A DNA stretch of 30,712 bases, taken from assembly GCA_964496735.1 (NCBI GenBank), contig CAZCAZ010000001.1, forward strand, positions 1-30,712. Reading direction: 5' to 3'. The position numbers and the translations under genes are program-made. Below the pieces are notes generated by a model that ran no database searches, was not told the DNA's origin, and saw only the letters and a program-made list of their open reading frames with translations. The first letter of the stretch is position 1. Each line of letters starts with the position of its first letter. Of the stretch, positions 3,141-22,833 are shown piece after piece. Origin of the DNA: an uncultured Nitratifractor sp. Its GTDB lineage: Bacteria; Campylobacterota; Campylobacteria; Campylobacterales; Sulfurovaceae.

Positions 3141-4112
3141 TTACATTTCGTACATGAGGTGTGTTGCCTTGGTGACATTATGACTTAGGCCAATCTCTTC
3201 AGGCGCGCAACCAAGAGCCAAAGCAACCATCTGCGGCATATGGAGCACTGGAAGCTCAATATCACGGCCAAGCTGTTTGCCTGCACTGTCCTGCTTGAGA
3301 TCCATGTTTAGCTGACAGAGCGGGCAGGGGGTAACCATCATATCCGCATTGTTGTCGATCGCATCAAGGAGCGCTGTGCCACTCAGAGCATTGCTGGTCT
3401 CAGGTGCCTGAAGGTCAACATGGAAGCCGCAGCATTTATTTTTGCTCTCATAGTCAACAGTGTTTCCTTCCAAAGCCAGGATCAAATTATCAAGAGAGGT
3501 GGGGGCATAGGGGTTTTCCTGGTGATTGTATTTTCCGAGGAATTCTTCGGATTCATACGAGACTTCTCCTCCTCCCTCGCTTGCTTCCGAGTCAGGTTGC
3601 TTCATGTTGTGTTTATGATGCAGGTGACTTGGACGGATATTGTGACAACCATAAAATGGAGCGATGTTGTGACTCTTGAGTGGTTGCTCTACTTTGGCAC
3701 TGAGATTATCCAGTCCGTAATCATCAATCAGGGCATAGAGGAAATGACGCACCTGGGATGTCCCCTTGTATTCCAAGCCAAATTCGGCCAATGACTCATT
3801 GACTTTTGCTCTCATCTCTGGATCATGATCGAGGCGTTCTTTGGTGGTGACGAGATTGAGTTGACATGTATTACAGATCGTCACAATATCGAGTCCACGC
3901 TTCTCGGCGTAGCAGATATTCCGGGCATTGAGTGTCAGAGACAGCACTTCGTCAAAATCCTGCAAATGGCTCGCTCCACAGCAGCTTGCCTCAACCAGAT
4001 CAACCAGCTCAATATCGAGTTTCCTGGCCACAGCCAGTGTTGAGGAGAGAAGCTCTGGGGTCGATTCTTTTGCCGTACATCCGGTGTAGAGGGCGTATTT
4101 TAGTTTACTCAT
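3141..4112 (-). CDS. sdhE: Type-E succinate:quinone oxidoreductase membrane anchor (HdrB-like, two CCG domains)
   Basis: CCG motifs YTGC/SCCGA/ICNTC and YGCH/KCCGF/PCPLC. Start moved from 4184 to the ATG at 4112 (MSKLKYALYTGC), which follows SD AAGGAG. Confidence 0.9.
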   Translation of the reverse strand: MSKLKYALYTGCTAKESTPELLSSTLAVARKLDIELVDLVEASCCGASHLQDFDEVLSLTLNARNICYAEKRGLDIVTICNTCQLNLVTTKERLDHDPEMRAKVNESLAEFGLEYKGTSQVRHFLYALIDDYGLDNLSAKVEQPLKSHNIAPFYGCHNIRPSHLHHKHNMKQPDSEASEGGGEVSYESEEFLGKYNHQENPYAPTSLDNLILALEGNTVDYESKNKCCGFHVDLQAPETSNALSGTALLDAIDNNADMMVTPCPLCQLNMDLKQDSAGKQLGRDIELPVLHMPQMVALALGCAPEEIGLSHNVTKATHLMYEM

Positions 4113-4122
4113 CGGTCTCTCC

Positions 4123-5115
4123 TTAGTCGAGTTTGCTTGTTTGGACTTTTTTGATGATTTTTTGAATTTCATCAAGGTTTTCACTGCGTGGCATTTTCTT
4201 CTTCATGATGTCAAACGGATGGACTTTGCCGGCTTTGACCATCTTGAGGGCTTCACTCAAGTGCTTGACGACACCCAGGCCCTCGGAATAGAGCACAATA
4301 TCCTGCTCGTCAAGATAACCAAACTTGTTGATCGATCGTGTAAAACCCTCAGCATGCTTGGTCGCAACATTGCGCTGAGCTACCCCCTGCTGAAACTGCA
4401 TGGTATGGAGTTTCGTGATCTTCTCGAAGGGATTGACTTCTTTGGGGCAAGCCTCAACGCATTCATTGCACTTGACACAGTCCCAGACACCTTGTCCGAG
4501 TTCTGCAGTCGCCTCGAGACGATCTTTGGCTGCATCGTCACGGGGATCGACAGAAAATCGATACGCAGCAGCAAAAGCAGCTGGCCCGAAGAACTTGTCA
4601 TTGACCTCCAGCACGGGACATGCGTAATGGCATCCGCCACACTGAATACAATAATCCGCATCCAAGAATTGCTCTACCTTGGTCTGCGGCATGATGGTCT
4701 CGGAGGCTGGATGAGGATCAATGTCTGCTTCCACGTAGGGCTTGACGGCGGCATGCTTTTCCCAAAAGTCCCCTTTGTCGATGATCATGTCTTTGACAGC
4801 ACGCTTTTCACTCTGAGGCTCAAAGACCAGATCCTCACCGAAGAGATCGACCAGCTCAAGTGCATTTTGCTTGCACGAAAGCACCGGCTTGCCGTTGACT
4901 TTGATTCCGCACGCACCGCAGATTCCATGACGGCAGCTGCGACGATAGCTGAACGATCCATCGTGCTCCCACTTGATCCGATTAAGCAGGTCAAGGATCA
5001 GCTCATCTTTGCCCACTTCCATCTCGTACGTTTTGTAGTACGGAAGGTAATCGGTCTCGACATTGAAGCGGAACGCCTTTATGCTGACATTTTTGGTCGT
5101 TTTACTTATACTCAT
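4123..5115 (-). CDS. sdhB: Succinate dehydrogenase/fumarate reductase Fe-S subunit, type E
   Basis: SCRHGICGAC..C (2Fe-2S), CIQCGGCHYACP, CVKCNECVEACP, and the long C-terminal extension typical of SdhABE/MfrB. Confidence 0.95.
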   Translation of the reverse strand: MSISKTTKNVSIKAFRFNVETDYLPYYKTYEMEVGKDELILDLLNRIKWEHDGSFSYRRSCRHGICGACGIKVNGKPVLSCKQNALELVDLFGEDLVFEPQSEKRAVKDMIIDKGDFWEKHAAVKPYVEADIDPHPASETIMPQTKVEQFLDADYCIQCGGCHYACPVLEVNDKFFGPAAFAAAYRFSVDPRDDAAKDRLEATAELGQGVWDCVKCNECVEACPKEVNPFEKITKLHTMQFQQGVAQRNVATKHAEGFTRSINKFGYLDEQDIVLYSEGLGVVKHLSEALKMVKAGKVHPFDIMKKKMPRSENLDEIQKIIKKVQTSKLD

Positions 5116-5126
5116 ATCGCGGCTCC

Positions 5127-6848
5127 TTAATACTTTCGCTCTTGGGGCTCAAATTTGCCCATCACCACATCACCATATGCCAACTCAACCGCATAATCAT
5201 CTTTGAGCGTCGCATACGTGTGCTTGAGGAAATTCACGTCATCTCGTGTCGGATAATCTTCACGGAAGTGTGCACCGCGACTCTCTTGACGCGCCAAAGC
5301 ACCCTCGACAATAAAGAGACTGAAATCTATCATATGACCCAGCTCAATCGCTTCTTGCAGATCGGTATTGAAGGTATTGGATTTGTCATCGATACGAATA
5401 TGCTGGTAGCGAGCATGCAACGCTTCGAGTTTTTTCTTTTGGCGCAACAGGGATTCTTCGGTGCGGAACACGCCTGCATCCATGGTCATGCTGTTCTGCA
5501 GCTCTTCCCGCAACGCTGGTACCCGCTCGTCACCATTGTTTTCTCGAATCCAGTTGAATTCATTGATCATCGTCTGAGCATCTTCGGCCGTGGCCTTGGC
5601 AAGGGCAATACCGTCAAGATCCTCTAGCATTGATCGGCCCGCTTCACGTCCAAAGAAGAGCGCCTCAAGCAGAGAGTTTGCTCCGAGGCGATTGGCTCCA
5701 TGAACGCTCACGCAGCTGCATTCACCGGCAGCATAAAAGCCCTCGACAAATTCGGTCGGAGACTGACGCACCTGACAGCGTTTATCGACAGGAATACCGC
5801 CCATGGAGTAGTGCGCCGTGGCTGCGATCATGATCGGCTCCTTGAGCATATCCTGCCCAAGGAAAGTGATGGCCAACTCCCGAAGCTCAGGAAGCTTGGT
5901 CATAATGGTCTCTTTGGGAAGATGAGTCAAGTCAATATACACTGCGTCCTTCTGAGGACCGACACCGCGCCCTTCACGGATCTCTTCCATGATAGCGCGA
6001 CTGACGACATCACGGCTGGCCAATTCCATGGCATTGGGGGCGTATTTTTCCATAAAACGCTCCCCTTCGGAGTTGAAGAGGCGTCCTCCCTCTCCGCGAG
6101 CTGCTTCCGAAATCAAAATCCCTGATCCCCCTAGTCCGCTAGGATGAAACTGGACAAACTCCATATCCTCCAGCGGCAAGCCTCTCCGCGCCACGATCGA
6201 AAGGGCATCCCCGGTGTTGGCATGTGCGTTGGAATTGATCTTGTAGGCACGACCATATCCACCGGTGGCAAACATCGTCACCTTGGCGTTGAAGATCACC
6301 GGGCTTGAGTCGCGCAAATTGTAGGCGGCGATTCCTTTGACTTTTCCGTCCTCATAGAGCACATCCGCTGCATAGTACTCGTCAAACACTTCGATACCAG
6401 CACGGTGCGCTTGCTCATACATCGTTTGAAGCAGTGTCAATCCGGTACGATCTGCTGCGTAGCAAGCACGAGGTTTGGATTGGCCACCAAAAGGGCGCGT
6501 GGCAATCCTGCCTTCATCATTGCGCGAAAAAATCGCACCCATATTCTCCGCCCAGCGTACGGTCTCGGGCGCCTTGGAGCACATTAGCTCAATGGCGTCT
6601 TGATCGCCAAGGTAGTCGCTTCCTTTGACCGTATCAAATTCGTGCAGCTCCGTGCTGTCTTCCTCGTTCAAGGCTGCGTTGATCCCACCTTGTGCTGCTC
6701 CCGAATGGCTTCGGAGTGGGTGGAGCTTGGTGATGACGGCGGTTTTTTTGCCCGCAGCCGTCAGTTCGCGCGCTGCGGCCAGACCCGCCAGTCCTGCGCC
6801 GACAATTACGGCATCGTATTCGTAGATTTTTACATCAGAAATCTTCAT
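5127..6848 (-). CDS. sdhA: Succinate dehydrogenase/fumarate reductase flavoprotein subunit
   Basis: [16 protein letters not shown] (FAD His), [42 protein letters not shown]. Confidence 0.97.
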
Positions 6849-6879
6849 GCTTGCTGTCCCTTTTCAGTAATATGCAAGG

Positions 6880-6888
6880 ATTATAGCA
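6880..6888 (-). promoter_or_regulatory. Extended -10 sigma70 promoter (TGCTATAAT) for sdhABE
   Basis: Exact TGnTATAAT about 32 nt upstream of the sdhA ATG. Confidence 0.7.
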
Positions 6889-6969
6889 ATGGGTCAATAT
6901 AATCTGCATTAATAACTCAACTGTCATGAATGAAGTAGTCAGAGGTGTTACGCTTTTACTCTTTTTGGA

Positions 6970-10399: not shown

Positions 10400-11176
10400 C
10401 TATCCTTCGACGTTAATCTCCAGACCCCCACCATCATCGCGAACATTGACAAGCTTGCGACGCATATAGGCGATCTTTTCTTGCAAAGGTAGATTCTTGG
10501 GGCAATTGTCCTCACATCCGAGCAACGTCATGCAGCCAAAGATACCACTGTCATCTCCAACAAGCTCATAATAATCCTCTGCTGTCCGCTCATCATGCGG
10601 ATCAGCGTCAAAACGTGCAATCCGATTGAGGCCTACTGCACCCACAAAGTCAGGGCGCATCAATGCCGTAGCGCACGACGAGACGCAAATTCCACATTCT
10701 ATGCAACGATCGAGTTCAAACGTCGCATCCGCCACTTCAGGCTCAATACGCTTCTCCATCCGGGTAATGTCCTGCTTTTCCTGTGTGTGTATCCAGCTTT
10801 CGACGCGCTTGGACATGTCGTCCATCCACTGGCCAGTTACAACCGAAAGATCCTTGATGAGTTTAAAGGAGGGCATGGGCATCAGTCGGATTGATCCATC
10901 AGGATAGTCCTTGGTCAGCGTACGACAGGCAAGGAGAGGCTTACCGTTGACCATCATACCGCAACTTCCGCAGATGCCGGCACGACAAACAAAGTCAAAT
11001 GCCAAATCAGGCTCAAACCGCTCTCGAATCATGTTGAGCGCCACAAAAAGGGTCATCCCAGGTGTCTCCTCGAGATGATATGTCACCATGTGGGGCTTGG
11101 ACTCCGGATCACTTGGGTTGTATTGTAAAATTTCAAAAGTCAACATTCGACCTTTATTTTCCAGCGTATCAGGCAT
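10400..11176 (-). CDS. frdB: Quinol:fumarate reductase Fe-S subunit
   Basis: [33 protein letters not shown] (3Fe-4S type). Start set at ATG 11176 ([14 protein letters not shown]), which overlaps the frdA end. Confidence 0.95.
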
Positions 11177-13163
11177 CACCAATCCCTTGTCGTTCATTTT
11201 TTTCTTTATAATTTTCCGGGAGATCAAAAGGCATCAGGGCATCTTGAATCTTAAAACGATCTGCCCCCTCTGTCTCCATTGCGTCCCGAATACGATCCAC
11301 TTCTTCTTGGCGTGTGACCGAATCCGGATGCTCCGTCGTCATCCCCTTGCGCCCGTAACCCCGAAAGGCTGGAGGCATTTCCATCTTCATGATGTCCAAG
11401 TCTTCATAGAAAACTTCTGGCAACGTCGCCGTGTCATCACTCCATCGCACCAGCGTACGTTTGAGCCAGTTTGCATCATCTCTTTTGAGGAAATCTTCCC
11501 GGTAATGTGCACCACGCGATTCGGTACGCAACAGAGCTCCGTATGCAATCGAGATGGCAATCTTGAGCATCTTTGGTAGACGATAGGCTTCGACCAATTC
11601 CGGATTGGACGCGTGCATCACGTAGCGAATCCCTACCTTGCGACTGCGCTCAAGCAAATCGCGGAGCTCGTCGACCGCCTCTTGCAGCTCATCACCATTT
11701 CGAAAAATGCCTACTTTTTCGTCCATGATCTCCTGCATGCGACGCTTGATATCAAATATGCTATCGTCATTGAGAGGGCGTGACATGATTTCACGGATAT
11801 TCTTCTCTTCTTTTTCGAGAAACTTTTCGATCGTTGCTGTGCCGATGCTGATATCATTTTCCAAACAAAAGTCTGCAACATAGTTGCCCACAATCATGCC
11901 AGAGACCACGGTCTCTGCCACAGAATTTCCTCCGAGCCGATTGAACCCATGCAGGTCCCAGCACGCAGCTTCACCGCAGGAAAACAAGCCACTCAAATCC
12001 GGAGACTCTCCGGTAGGCTTGGTACGAACACCTCCCATGCTGTAGTGCTGTGCCGGACGCACAGGTAGCCAGCCTTTGGCTCCCTCGTCGGCTGGGTCAA
12101 TGCCATTAAATGTCATCGCAATCTCCTGCACGTCTCGAAGATTCTTTTCAATATGCTCGCGTCCAAGGATCGCGATATCAAGCCAGAGGTGATCGCCATA
12201 GACTGACTTGACCCCTTTGCCGTTTCGGATATGCTCCATCATGCGACGACTCACAACATCACGAGAAGCAAGATCCTTTTTCTCCGGCTCATAATCGGGC
12301 ATAAAACGGTATCCGTCCACATCACGCAGCACTCCGCCGTCTCCACGACACCCTTCGGTCAACAAGATACCTGAAGGGACGATAGGGGTAGGGTGGAACT
12401 GTACTGCCTCAGGGTTGCCCAATGTAGCGATCCCGGTCTCGAGCACAGCAGCCTGCCCTGTACCTTCACAAATCACCGCATTGGTCGTGGTGCGGTAGAC
12501 TCGGCCCCAGCCACCCGTAGCAATGGTGGTTGCTTTGGCCACATACGCCTCCAGCTCTCCATCAATAAGATCCCGAACAACCGCTCCATAACAGCGACCA
12601 TTTTCATGGATGAGAGAGAGAAGCTCCTTGCGCTCACGAATATCCACATCGTCTTTGAGCGCTTGATTGGCCACGCCAAAAAGCATCGTGTGTCCCGTAG
12701 CATCCGAGGTGTAGCATGTACGCCATTTCTTGGTACCGCCAAAATCCCGTGCATTGATCAATCCGTGGTCTTCGTCGGCTTCCGTAATGACCGTACGCTC
12801 CGTATTGATCACCACGCTACGGTCTCCCCGTTTGATGCGCGACCAGGGCACGCCCCATGCAGCCAATTCGCGGATCGCCTTGGGGGCTGTAGTGACAAAC
12901 ATTCGCGCGACATCCTGATCGCATCCCCAGTCGCTCCCCTTGACCGTATCAGCAAAGTGGACATCTTCATTGTCGCCTTTGCCCATGGTACTGTTGCCAA
13001 GGCTTGCCTGCATTCCTCCCTGGGCCGCTGCCGAGTGCGATCGCTTGACAGGCACAAGGGAGAGGACGATGGTGCTCAGCCCCTTTTCTTGCGTTGCAAC
13101 CGCTGTACGCAGTCCAGCCAAACCCCCGCCGATCACCAACGAGTCACAATATTGAATCTTCAT
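11169..13163 (-). CDS. frdA: Quinol:fumarate reductase flavoprotein subunit (Wolinella/Campylobacter type)
   Basis: [62 protein letters not shown]. Confidence 0.97.
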
Positions 13164-13945
13164 GATAGTACTCCCTGATCAGATACCCGCACGGTCGTCA
13201 TTGCCGTAGGGTGATAGCGCTCGCCGTACATGCCTTGATGCGCCATGCCAATCTTGACATACGCGGCCAACGACAACAGTCCTAGGGTCAGAAAAAACAC
13301 CGTGATGGCCCATTTGATCTTTTTGAGGCGCTTTCGAGAGGCACGTGCATCCTTTCCGTTGCACCATCCCCATTTCATGCAGAGACGGTATAGGCCGATA
13401 GAGCCATGCAACTCTACTGCAAACAGCAGCAGCAGATACAATGGCCACATCCCATCACTCCACATGCGATCGGCTGAAGCAAAAGGACCGATCTTGTCCG
13501 CATTGCTCATAAGAACATACAGATGCACCGACCCGACGAAGAACATTACAAAGCCTGTCAAAGCCTGCACCATCCAGAGATTCGTGTCACCGTGCTTCAG
13601 TGCAAAGGCATGCGTTTTGAGCACTTTGTATTCTTTCCACTTGTATGGGAATTTGCGCATTGCCAATCCGGCATGGATGATAAAAATAGCAAAAACTAAT
13701 GTGACCGAGAGCGTCACAATGATCGGATGGGGCTGTGCAAACAGAAAGCTCCCCTCAAACATTTTGGCTACAGTGTACATAAAGTCTTTACTGATAAGAA
13801 TCGTAGAGACAAACAACATATGCCCCCACATAAACAACCCGAGAAACAACCCCGAAGCGCTCTGCCAACGGTCCAGTCGAGCCGGCATACGACTCTTGGT
13901 TCCATCAACGCGTTTACCCAAGTATCCTTCAATGATACTGGCCAT
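13160..13945 (-). CDS. frdC: Quinol:fumarate reductase dihaem cytochrome b subunit
   Basis: KSRMPARLD, four His haem ligands (WGHML, IIHAG, SVHLY, VELHG), MFEG, and the E-pathway Glu in ELH. ATGA overlap with frdA. Confidence 0.95.
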
Positions 13946-21289: not shown

Positions 21290-21928
21290 ATGGAATCTTC
21301 TACCAAGCGCACGGGCAAAACCAAAGAGAAGATACTGGCTCAGTCGCTCAAGCTGTTCGCCTCCAAGGGTTTCAAGGAAACCACTGTTCGCGATATTGCT
21401 ACTGCGGTTGGTTTGCAGCAAGGTGCACTCTATAATCACTTCAAAAACAAAGACGCGATCCTTACTGCACTGATCGACCAGTTGATGAGTTCAGCTATCG
21501 TCACCATCTTTGAAGAGAAAGAACCTGACGAGCTCTACAAACGCGGCAAAGCACTTCTAGCGAACATTGCTACGACCTTCAAGCTTTTGAGCTTTGACGG
21601 CAAAAATGAAGCCCTCTTCAAGCTCATGATGCAAGAGATGTACAAAAACAGTGATGTGCGTGACCTCTACCATGAATATTTCTATCAGCACAACATCAAA
21701 AAACTCTCATCCATACTCTTCATGATGATGCAGGATGAAATGATTCGCTCGTACGACCCACTGACACTGGCCAATGAATTCTTGACGCCCCTATTCTTCT
21801 ATCAGACACAGGTCATACTTTTAAAGCTTGATGACAAGTCCACTTCGTCGGCTGTGACGCTATTTGAGAAGCACGTAGACTACTTCTGGGACTCCGTACG
21901 TATCCGAGAACAAGAAGGCCTCGCATGA
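21290..21928 (+). CDS. TetR/AcrR-family transcriptional regulator
   Basis: KTKEKILAQSLKLFASKGFKETTVRDIATAVGLQQGALYNHFKNKDAIL. SD GGAAGGA. Confidence 0.95.
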   Translation: MESSTKRTGKTKEKILAQSLKLFASKGFKETTVRDIATAVGLQQGALYNHFKNKDAILTALIDQLMSSAIVTIFEEKEPDELYKRGKALLANIATTFKLLSFDGKNEALFKLMMQEMYKNSDVRDLYHEYFYQHNIKKLSSILFMMMQDEMIRSYDPLTLANEFLTPLFFYQTQVILLKLDDKSTSSAVTLFEKHVDYFWDSVRIREQEGLA

Positions 21929-22833
21929 TCTTCAAGAACCTCCCCTTCTCTATTCCTCCTGGTCGTGGTCAGCACACCAAAGCCCCCTGCGCGCACACCC
22001 GTCACCGATCCAACATGATGCTCAATCCACTCGAGCTCAAACACCTCAATCGCATCGATGAGCTCTCAGCCGATGCGATCACGCTCAACCTAGAAGATGC
22101 CATCGCTCCCACGCGCAAGCAAGAGGCCTTGGAAAATATCGCCCTCTTTCTTTCGCACTGCCCAGCGAGCCCTAGTCGCATCATTGTCCGCGTTAATCCG
22201 CTTGATCAGGGAGGTGCCGAAGAGATCGCTTACCTCAATACCATAGGATTTGATGCTGTCCGGCTGGCCAAGGTGCGCACTCGTGACGAAATCGAGCGGG
22301 CGCTTGCCCTCCTCGCGCCGGACAAGACCCTGCATATCTCCGTTGAAACATCTGGGGCTTTTCGAGATTTAGCACAATGGGGAGACTTCGAGCGTCTTAC
22401 GACTGCCAACCTCGGCATCTTGGACTTGCTGGCCGATCTCAATCTCTCCCATCGACTGTTAACGCCCGGCAATCCTACCATCGACTATATCCTGTCAGCC
22501 TTTTTGGTTCGTTCACGGACAGCGGGGCTGATCCCGACAGGATTTATGTTTCAAGACTATGCCGATACGGCCACCTATGCTCTTTGGCTTCGGCACCTCA
22601 AGGACATGGGATATGACGCAGCTGCATGCATGGGGCCAGCTCAAGTATCTCTTGCTAATCGCATGTTTGATATTGACTCCCATGAACAAGAGCGCGCCCT
22701 GTATATCCGAGAGGTTTTTGAAAAAAATCAATCAAAAAATATCAACGGTTTCATGGATGCTCGTTATGGATTTATCGATGAGCCTATTTATCGCGATGCC
22801 TTGAATATACTTGCCAATATCAATCAGAATTAA
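21925..22833 (+). CDS. CitE/HpcH-HpaI family acyl-CoA lyase (citrate lyase beta-like)
   Basis: DAITLNLEDAIA, IIVRVN, ISVET, LGILDL, GPAQV, GFIDEP. ATGA overlap with tetR. Confidence 0.85.
   Translation: MIFKNLPFSIPPGRGQHTKAPCAHTRHRSNMMLNPLELKHLNRIDELSADAITLNLEDAIAPTRKQEALENIALFLSHCPASPSRIIVRVNPLDQGGAEEIAYLNTIGFDAVRLAKVRTRDEIERALALLAPDKTLHISVETSGAFRDLAQWGDFERLTTANLGILDLLADLNLSHRLLTPGNPTIDYILSAFLVRSRTAGLIPTGFMFQDYADTATYALWLRHLKDMGYDAAACMGPAQVSLANRMFDIDSHEQERALYIREVFEKNQSKNINGFMDARYGFIDEPIYRDALNILANINQN

Follow-up and report, generated by a model that had tools for sequence, protein, structure and literature searches.

A predicted cytoplasm-facing type-E complex II in an uncultured Nitratifractor sp. 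and its candidate role in the rTCA cycle

We analysed a 30,712-nt stretch of DNA from an uncultured Nitratifractor sp. (contig CAZCAZ010000001.1), here referred to as the window, and identified an sdhABE operon whose product is, judging from its architecture, topology signals and phyletic pattern, a cytoplasm-facing type-E complex II. It is not a periplasmic 8-methylmenaquinol:fumarate reductase (MFR) stripped of its export signal; it is a real but ordinary type-E oxidoreductase, and complexes of this kind are already known from genome papers since 2008–2009. As regards its role, we lean with moderate confidence towards a complex that favours the direction from menaquinol to fumarate and serves the reductive TCA (rTCA) cycle; in this reading the covalent flavin bond, the quinone used and the sense of the reaction are inferred.

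The sdhABE operon

The three genes lie on the minus strand in the order sdhA, sdhB and sdhE. The first (5127..6848) encodes the flavoprotein subunit of 573 aa with the Pfam domains FAD_binding_2 and Succ_DH_flav_C, the second (4123..5115) the type-E iron-sulfur subunit of 330 aa with the domains Fer2_3 and Fer4, and the third (3141..4112) an HdrB-like subunit of 323 aa in which PF02754, the CCG domain, occurs twice. ATG at 4112 is a likelier start for sdhE than GTG at 4184, as the sdhB stop TAA, GGAGA and this ATG follow each other in that order and the starts of homologues agree. The thiamine-phosphate kinase gene thiL is divergent from position 6926, and a divergent thiL neighbour was retained at 43 of the 80 related named loci.

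No SdhF gene was found in the operon, where the next gene downstream, at a distance of 131 bp, encodes a DUF533 protein. This neighbour was rejected as a stand-in for SdhF, as only 1 of the 80 related loci, that of the closest relative, has DUF533 there. Since bacterial SdhABE enzymes, MFR included, are also without SdhF, the bacterial subgroup does not need it.

The preliminary description of this DNA had proposed that SdhA starts at the Rossmann motif without a twin-arginine leader and that the enzyme faces the cytoplasm, and both proposals held when we searched for an upstream start that could add a Tat peptide. SdhA begins 11 residues ahead of the Rossmann fold, with an in-frame TGA six codons (18 nt) upstream of its ATG. 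Because thiL starts divergently at 6926, only 77 bp lie upstream of sdhA; this intergenic region (6849..6925, no strand) holds the sdhA ribosome-binding site, the TGA and a promoter-like TTGACC-17-CATATT, and shows no RR motif in any frame. Thus, a Tat leader cannot fit on SdhA, and an upstream extension or another frame supplying one was ruled out. SdhB and SdhE have neither an RR motif nor a hydrophobic N-terminus, so that no subunit of the operon carries a Tat or Sec signal.

Active site and redox centres

The covalent-FAD histidine noted earlier is present: by alignment, SdhA His48 falls on the His that binds FAD covalently in E. coli SdhA and FrdA, in M. smegmatis SdhA and in mitochondrial SdhA, and its FAD is probably covalent. 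The same His is aligned in the best PDB match, the 6LUM SdhA (E 9.6e-176). The dicarboxylate site is intact: the catalytic His/Arg set is shared with E. coli FrdA and SdhA, and the equivalents of E. coli FrdA H232, E245, R287, H355 and R390 are conserved. Beside the flavin stands Gln53, and Gln at this position is the SQR-type residue in E. coli (PMC4145680). In profile searches, SdhA reached 752 bits with TIGR01812 and 725.1 bits with TIGR01816 (sdhA_forward), at which the cut-off is 727.35. Succinate oxidation would be compatible with the strictly conserved His, with Gln53 and with an sdhA_forward score this close to its cut-off. As a marker of direction, the flavin-adjacent Glu/Gln position was dropped, as Wolinella-type FrdA also has Gln. 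Since the Wolinella-type FrdA of the window, a member of a reductase family, has both His and Gln, the two residues do not diagnose direction. The sequence does not tell a succinate dehydrogenase from a fumarate reductase here.

The type-E class was reportedly defined by Lemos and Lancaster. Its hallmarks, namely a third SdhB motif with four Cys, two CCG motifs and no TM helix (PMC2754724), are all found here. The cluster motifs of SdhB are C61/66/69/81, CIQCGGCHYACP and CVKCNECVEACP; the last has four Cys, whereas the E. coli SdhB counterpart is CHSIMNCVSVCP and the FrdB of the window has three Cys. The fourth Cys predicts a second [4Fe-4S] cluster in place of [3Fe-4S]. SdhB also has a C-terminal extension of ~85 aa; it aligns over its full length with the long-SdhB models PRK12576/12577 and with the MFR SdhB, and PDB SdhB chains match only residues ~7–243.

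SdhE contains two C...CCG...CxxC motifs, with CCG at residues 68 and 251 and CxxC at residues 104 and 287, and all ten CCG cysteines are conserved. No TM-like segment was detected in it (maximum KD19 of 1.37 vs 2.43 in FrdC), and it is presumed to be a monotopic anchor with the quinone site. The naming of this subunit is inconsistent, "cytochrome b subunit" by JGI and "HdrB family" by NCBI, which may explain why some papers count two subunits only. Put together, SdhA would interconvert fumarate and succinate in the cytoplasm with its FAD probably covalent on His48, SdhB would relay electrons via one [2Fe-2S] and two [4Fe-4S] clusters, and SdhE would hold the complex on the inner membrane face without TM helices and connect it to the menaquinone pool.

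Among known systems, the Sulfolobus/Acidianus type-E SQR (SdhABE/SdhABEF; PMC2754724) shares the cytoplasm-facing flavoprotein with the covalent-FAD His, the fourth Cys of SdhB and the two-CCG subunit that replaces the haem-b anchors without a TM helix. The window differs from it in that the operon is without SdhF, in that SdhE has a lineage-specific acidic insert (approximately residues 194–220 in the numbering of the 347-aa reading) and in that the host has menaquinone rather than the high-potential caldariellaquinone, and therefore fumarate reduction is the likely direction.

Comparison with MFR and with vent Campylobacterota

The preliminary description had treated the enzyme as an atypical form of the homologous MfrABE, a framing that had to be given up. 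MFR (MfrABE/SdhABE) of Wolinella succinogenes and Campylobacter jejuni (PMC2680327) has the same three-subunit type-E architecture and long SdhB and comes from the same phylum, but it is periplasmic, does not oxidise succinate, carries a Tat leader on SdhA and has Ala for the His (non-covalent FAD) and Glu for Gln53. The Tat export and non-covalent FAD that had been stated for Wolinella SdhA were confirmed in the same paper, in which exchanging Ala86 for His made the FAD covalent. Identity to the MFR clade is 40–43% for SdhA and 33–35% for SdhE, and the match to the MFR SdhA model starts only at model position 43. We rejected identity as an MFR orthologue on the NCBIfam equivalogs, whose cut-offs the window enzyme misses by a factor of 2–4 (SdhA 499.7 vs 1100, SdhB 154 vs 600, SdhE 210.5 vs 500).

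Furthermore, all 24 orthologues examined from relatives across the phylum (62–85% identity, at least 10 family codes) were Tat-less and kept the His, and thus this state is the norm; the His was invariant in 25 of 25 group-A sequences. On the MFR side, all 13 genes of the clade had the leader (S/T)RR(D/E)F(L/I/V) and Ala at the His position within R(N/S)AT. The 40 loci examined give a simple sequence rule: genes with an RR leader and Ala belong to MFR, whereas leaderless genes with His belong to the rTCA-associated orthologue. A tempting misreading can be corrected: type-E complex II normally faces the cytoplasm and has covalent FAD, the Tat-less, His-bearing state being standard in type E as in complex II at large, and the Tat-exported MFR is the exception.

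Group A and MFR form separate clades, each with 100% SH-aLRT support in the SdhA tree as well as in the SdhE tree. The SdhA tree sets group A apart from MFR, although a joint clade is not rejected by the AU test (p 0.43). For SdhE, an initial AU test that did reject the joint clade (p 0.007) was an artefact, as the constraint had omitted metagenomic representatives nested in both clades; with a fair test the joint clade was not rejected (p 0.91), and the likelihood of the constrained tree was even higher.

Orthologous counterparts are the "Fdr/sdhABC" clusters of vent Campylobacterota noted in PMC2628731, PMC4674564 and PMC10092268, which have the same order of sdhA, sdhB and sdhE, at 62–92% identity. 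Their hosts (Sulfurovum, Nitratifractor, Hydrogenimonas, Nitratiruptor, Sulfurimonas and Nautilia) are rTCA organisms positive for ATP-citrate lyase (ACL), and they share the Tat-less N-terminus and the covalent-FAD-His motif of the window SdhA. In their relevant passages, these papers do not identify the third subunit as carrying CCG domains.

The neighbouring frdCAB genes

A complete frdCAB had been reported about 3.5 kb from sdhABE, and we found it at ~10400–13945 on the minus strand, with the end of frdB 3552 bp from the start of sdhA. All three subunits reach NCBIfam equivalog cut-offs: frdC (13160..13945), the dihaem cytochrome b anchor of a Wolinella-type (type B) quinol:fumarate reductase with an Sdh_cyt Pfam match, scored 394 bits with NF010072 (cut-off 187); frdA (11169..13163), the type-B flavoprotein of 664 aa whose motif has His and Gln, scored 1153 with NF006383 (cut-off 663); and frdB (10400..11176, start uncertain between Met 11176 and Met 11146), the type-B iron-sulfur subunit, scored 425.6 with NF010071 (cut-off 264). 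FrdCAB catalyses the same reaction on the same cytoplasmic side, but its anchor is a dihaem cytochrome b, its third cluster motif has three Cys, and its FrdA is only ~35% identical to SdhA.

The proximity of the two complex-II types had also been taken as a hint of a division of labour. The analysis gave no support to this: the spacing is not conserved within the family, and the loci lie ~236 kb apart in one genome (G072) and ~676 kb apart in another (G291). The type-B anchor FrdC occurs in only 8 of the 61 sampled genomes with a type-E orthologue, which leaves the type-E complex as usually the sole quinone-linked complex II, and the nearby frdCAB would be an accessory respiratory fumarate reductase of the Wolinella type.

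Direction of the reaction and link to the rTCA cycle

We surveyed a sample of 300 Campylobacterota genomes, 65 with ACL and 235 without. The type-E orthologue was present in 59 of the 65 ACL-positive genomes and in 2 of the 235 ACL-negative ones, which makes it characteristic of rTCA autotrophs; as this co-occurrence follows phylogeny, the genomes do not count as independent data points. In one family (f6), a strong ACL match was obtained for three genomes, and precisely these three carry the type-E orthologue. On this strong co-occurrence, the rTCA link put forward in the preliminary description appears plausible.

The host genome has ACL as well as MqnA/MqnD. A search with HemN_C (PF06969) for mqnK, which would point to methylmenaquinone as a donor, returned only HemN, here and in Campylobacter-like genomes expected to encode MqnK, so this probe is insensitive. 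According to PMC13147460, the quinone reported for Campylobacterota is menaquinone, whose reduced form favours the reduction of fumarate. Since the host makes menaquinone and has ACL, and since a haem-less enzyme cannot use the proton-motive force, the favoured direction in vivo would be from menaquinol to fumarate, and the complex would thereby provide the fumarate-reducing step of the rTCA cycle.

It is possible, though clearly less probable, that the complex works chiefly as a succinate dehydrogenase or is fully reversible, serving an oxidative or branched TCA cycle or redox balance of the quinone pool, and that the rTCA step is carried out by a soluble AB-type enzyme with non-covalent FAD or, in this genome, by FrdCAB. 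The covalent-FAD His of group A argues for this, as dedicated reductases are without it (Ala in MFR, Gln in the AB-type), and so do the SQR-type Gln53 and a TIGR01816 score (725 bits) next to its cut-off (727); yet Wolinella-type FrdA, of a bona fide reductase family, has His and Gln too. Nearly all ACL-positive relatives encode an AB-type FrdA/FrdB paralogue in which Gln replaces the His, and a two-subunit cytoplasmic enzyme was proposed for the rTCA step by Sievert et al. 2008, in the wording quoted by PMC4674564. On the other hand, the paralogue was not found in the window's MAG, which is only 78% complete, and in one ACL-positive genome of 100% completeness (G136) the type-E SdhA is the sole SdhA/FrdA homologue besides NadB. 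Moreover, with menaquinone as acceptor the oxidation of succinate is endergonic, and an anchor that is monotopic and haem-less cannot link it to the proton-motive force.

The wide presence of the AB-type paralogue and the frdCAB genes of the window, which could reduce fumarate here, are observations that point against the preferred rTCA fumarate reductase reading. The type-E complex and the soluble AB-type paralogue are thus both candidates for the rTCA fumarate reductase of Campylobacterota.

Electron donor and membrane side

It is unlikely that the CCG subunit lacks a quinone site and instead couples fumarate reduction to another kind of donor, for example a thiol/disulfide or sulfur carrier, as in archaeal thiol:fumarate reductase or HdrB. 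SdhE does score equally against the methanogen HdrB model TIGR03288 (210.8 bits) and the MFR SdhE model (210.5 bits), its ten CCG cysteines are all kept, and type E has been proposed to descend from a thiol:fumarate reductase ancestor (PMC2754724). Our PDB search returned no solved type-E complex, and HdrB chains (E 1e-51 to 1e-36) are the only solved relatives of SdhE. Nevertheless, the characterised type-E enzymes, the Sulfolobus/Acidianus SQR and the Wolinella MFR, are quinone-linked (PMC2754724, PMC2680327), the Tfr models were missed (TfrA 460.9 vs a cut-off of 718, TfrB 139.8 vs 385) and no thiol-cofactor or Hdr partner genes lie beside the operon. The Fe-S and CCG modules are fused in the TfrB of TfrAB, whereas sdhB and sdhE are separate genes in the window. 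Slightly more doubtful still is that such a CCG-coupled enzyme would be the bacterial analogue of thiol:fumarate reductase and, at the same time, the true rTCA fumarate reductase of the phylum.

A periplasmic location like that of MFR, reached by hitch-hiking on another Tat substrate, is very improbable: TatC is encoded in the genome and the MFR SdhB, with no signal of its own, travels with SdhA (PMC2680327), but an RR motif was found in no subunit of the operon and in 0 of 24 orthologues, as against 13 of 13 MFR genes, and no neighbouring gene encodes a candidate carrier. Relatives of SdhE were also observed outside Campylobacterota, in Thermovibrio, Veillonella, Pandoraea and Dehalococcoidia.

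Operon structure and complex II class

The source genome is a metagenome-assembled genome (MAG) of 1.48 Mb in 188 contigs, 77.8% complete, and the closest SdhA matches of the window were from Nitratifractor and Sulfurovum-type Campylobacterota. All three genes of the operon lie on the minus strand: sdhA (5127-6848; 573 aa, with FAD_binding_2 and Succ_DH_flav_C), sdhB (4123-5115; 330 aa, starting 11 nt past sdhA, with Fer2_3 and a 4Fe-4S dicluster domain) and sdhE (3141-4112; 323 aa, with two CCG domains). The longest frame of sdhE spans 3141-4184; we placed its start at 4112 because the sdhB stop codon TAA is followed there by GGAGA, seven further bases and ATG, and because homologues of SdhE start at the same Met. 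As in other bacterial SdhABE operons, no SdhF gene was found in the operon.

In type-E complexes, FAD is bound covalently, SdhB contains a second [4Fe-4S] cluster instead of [3Fe-4S], and SdhC/D are replaced by a CCG-domain subunit that lacks transmembrane helices; the hydrophilic domain faces the cytoplasm (PMC2754724). In the window, SdhB carries C-x2-C-x2-C-x3-CP twice, the second copy being CVKCNECVEACP, whereas E. coli SdhB has CHSIMNCVSVCP at this position and the window's own FrdB also differs from CVKCNECVEACP. SdhB exceeds the solved SdhB chains by about 85 residues and matched the long-SdhB models, among them that of the periplasmic methylmenaquinol:fumarate reductase (MFR), over the full length. 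SdhE has two C...CCG...CxxC motifs, and its only solved relatives are HdrB chains. Both the type-E class and the orientation of these enzymes towards the cytoplasm belong to textbook knowledge.

An acidic, His-rich insert was detected between the two CCG domains of SdhE (around residues 194-220 of the 347-aa reading). It is common to the nearest relatives only (G004, G172, G072, G121, G091, G264 and G190); in other orthologues, the SdhE match splits into two pieces at the insert. The CCG subunit is also named differently among the cluster members of P0125-P0135, as [quoted passage not shown] by JGI and [quoted passage not shown] by NCBI, which may be why some genome papers count just two subunits.

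Signal sequences and predicted flavin attachment of SdhA

The preliminary description had reported an SdhA that starts at its Rossmann motif without a twin-arginine leader but retains the covalent-FAD histidine, and this observation proved real and accurately described. An in-frame TGA lies six codons 5′ of the ATG, and no twin-arginine motif was found in any of the three frames upstream of sdhA, where only 77 bp separate its start from that of a divergent thiamine-phosphate kinase gene at 6926 (NF004354, 364 bits). No RR motif was present in SdhB or SdhE, and none of the subunits has a signal- or transmembrane-like hydrophobic stretch (maximum 19-residue Kyte-Doolittle mean of 1.4, versus 2.4 in FrdC). 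TatC is encoded in the genome. In alignments, His48 falls on the histidine that binds FAD covalently in E. coli SdhA and FrdA and in the M. smegmatis and mitochondrial SdhA; the equivalents of E. coli FrdA H232, E245, R287, H355 and R390 are also kept. The Tat export and non-covalent FAD ascribed to the Wolinella enzyme were likewise found in the literature, together with an Ala86->His variant (PMC2680327).

Comparison with MFR and with orthologous operons

For each of the MFR subunits there is an NCBIfam equivalog model, and the idea that the window's enzyme is an MFR that lost its signal was rejected, as all three cut-offs were missed (SdhA 499.7 bits against 1100, SdhB 154 against 600, SdhE 210.5 against 500). 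SdhA scored 725.1 on the "forward" SdhA model, the cut-off of which is 727.35.

Searching SdhE against 300 other Campylobacterota genomes gave two classes of matches, with 50-81% identity over the N-terminal CCG domain versus 35-40%. We fetched 40 loci and examined the beginning of sdhA in each as a stop-to-stop frame. In all 24 loci orthologous to the window's operon, from at least 10 family codes, SdhA (62-85% identity) had the His and no Tat leader, with 6-11 residues before the Rossmann motif. On the other hand, all 13 loci of the low-identity class, the MFR clade (40-43% SdhA identity), had a leader of 40-50 residues with (S/T)RR(D/E)F(L/I/V), and R(N/S)AT...AEGG with Ala in place of the His. 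The named relatives with the orthologous operon include Nitratifractor, Hydrogenimonas, Sulfurovum, Nitratiruptor, Arcobacteraceae MAGs and "Zeitz epsilonproteobacterium", and the order sdhA-sdhB-sdhE was kept in all 80 loci wherever the contig extent shows it.

Therefore, a Tat-less, His-bearing SdhA is the rule for the orthologues and for complex II generally, and its framing as a departure from MfrABE does not hold: MFR is the atypical member, and the surprise arose from comparison with this one experimentally studied enzyme. The window's operon represents a known enzyme class in the form usual for its clade. Two Fdr/Sdh complexes in Sulfurimonas, Nautilia and related isolates, and an "Fdr/sdhABC" common to vent epsilonproteobacteria, are described in the genome papers PMC2628731, PMC10092268 and PMC4674564.

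A second type-E sdhABE was observed in family f4 (L032, L033 and L034 from genomes G043, G007 and G045; 46-47% SdhA identity), with the His and no Tat leader in all three loci. This copy probably corresponds to the second anchored complex that PMC2628731 mentions for Nautilia.

In both the SdhA and the SdhE trees, the orthologues and MFR each formed a clade (100% SH-aLRT). The MFR SdhE clade was sister (99%) to the representative of a large cluster, the one named member of which is from Veillonella. A joint clade of orthologues and MFR was not rejected by the AU test for SdhA (p 0.43). For SdhE it was rejected at first (p 0.007), in a test biased by representatives nested in both clades but left outside the constraint; once these were placed inside it, the test no longer rejected the constrained tree, whose likelihood was in fact the higher (p 0.91). 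Therefore, we call MFR only a distinct clade bearing the derived states, and stop short of calling it unrelated.

Association with the reductive TCA cycle and probable direction

The window's genome has ATP-citrate lyase (ACL), split over two contig ends, and members of the futalosine-pathway MqnA/MqnD family, which indicate that the host makes menaquinone. An orthologue of the operon was found in 59 of the 65 genomes with a strong ACL match (absent from 6) and in 2 of the 235 genomes with no strong match (absent from 233); as the sampled genomes are related, this is an association and not a statistical test. In f6, the one family mixed for both traits, the three strong-ACL genomes were exactly the three orthologue carriers. 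The type-B anchor FrdC was nearly universal in Helicobacter-, Campylobacter-, Arcobacter- and Sulfurospirillum-like families and present in 8 of the 61 orthologue-bearing genomes, and thus the type-E enzyme is the sole quinone-linked complex II found in most rTCA lineages. In one complete, ACL-positive genome (G136), the SdhA/FrdA homologues were the type-E gene and NadB, with no other; if the cycle operates, fumarate reduction in at least this lineage has to come from the type-E enzyme.

Transferring electrons from succinate to menaquinone is energetically unfavourable, and an anchor lacking haem cannot tap the proton-motive force. Both points argue on thermodynamic grounds for fumarate reduction; reaction energies are tabulated in PMC13147460. 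An enzyme capable of succinate oxidation would be well served by the covalent-FAD His, which is invariant, and by Gln53, a residue of SQR type in E. coli (PMC4145680). The neighbouring Wolinella-type FrdA shares both this His and this Gln, however, and therefore these residues decide nothing on direction, which cannot be read from sequence (PMC13147460, citing Cecchini).

A soluble paralogue as rival candidate

A second FrdA-like gene (AB-type), shorter at about 540 aa, occurs in complete relatives; it has Gln in place of the His, like soluble reductases (L134:5046-7411 in G297, L131:4894-6513 in G040, L132 and L133). A 242-aa FrdB comes after it in G297, with no third or anchor subunit, and G040 has the A gene by itself. 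The AB-type enzyme is a rival candidate for the fumarate reductase step of the rTCA cycle, and its gene is present in almost all ACL-positive Campylobacterota genomes sampled. Presumably, it is the two-subunit, cytoplasmic enzyme proposed for the rTCA cycle by Sievert et al. 2008, as quoted in PMC4674564, and the "incomplete AB" form described in PMC13147460.

The AB-type gene was present in all 12 sampled family members and was not found in this MAG, which is 22% incomplete; its other SdhA-like pieces were two NadB halves at contig ends (C5:27105-27875 and C183:876-1631). The ACL gene is similarly split (C105:4405-4707 and C162:1997-2227), and gene absences in this assembly are thus to be read with care.

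The neighbouring frdCAB operon

A complete frdCAB had been described about 3.5 kb away; we located it at about 10400-13945, 3552 bp from the sdhA start, and it reached the NCBIfam equivalog cut-offs for the Wolinella-type enzyme. In complete family members, a long distance separates the two operons, about 236 kb in G072 and about 676 kb in G291, and no FrdC match was found in the closest relatives G004 and G121. The window's FrdC was 64-66% identical to those of other families (f11 and f6) versus 50-56% to those of its own family. Therefore, frdCAB looks like a patchy accessory, possibly gained by transfer. The GC content is 0.55 at 12001-13000 versus about 0.48 elsewhere in the window.

Two MAGs of Hydrogenimonas have a type-B frdA immediately upstream of sdhA (L063:3-1325 and L066:2-1327), with 63-64% identity to the frdA of the window, and therefore the adjacency of complex II operons recurs in another genus. 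Elsewhere in the window, 21290-22833 encodes a TetR-family regulator followed by an HpcH/CitE-like aldolase/lyase, with weak citE/RipC matches far below the cut-offs.
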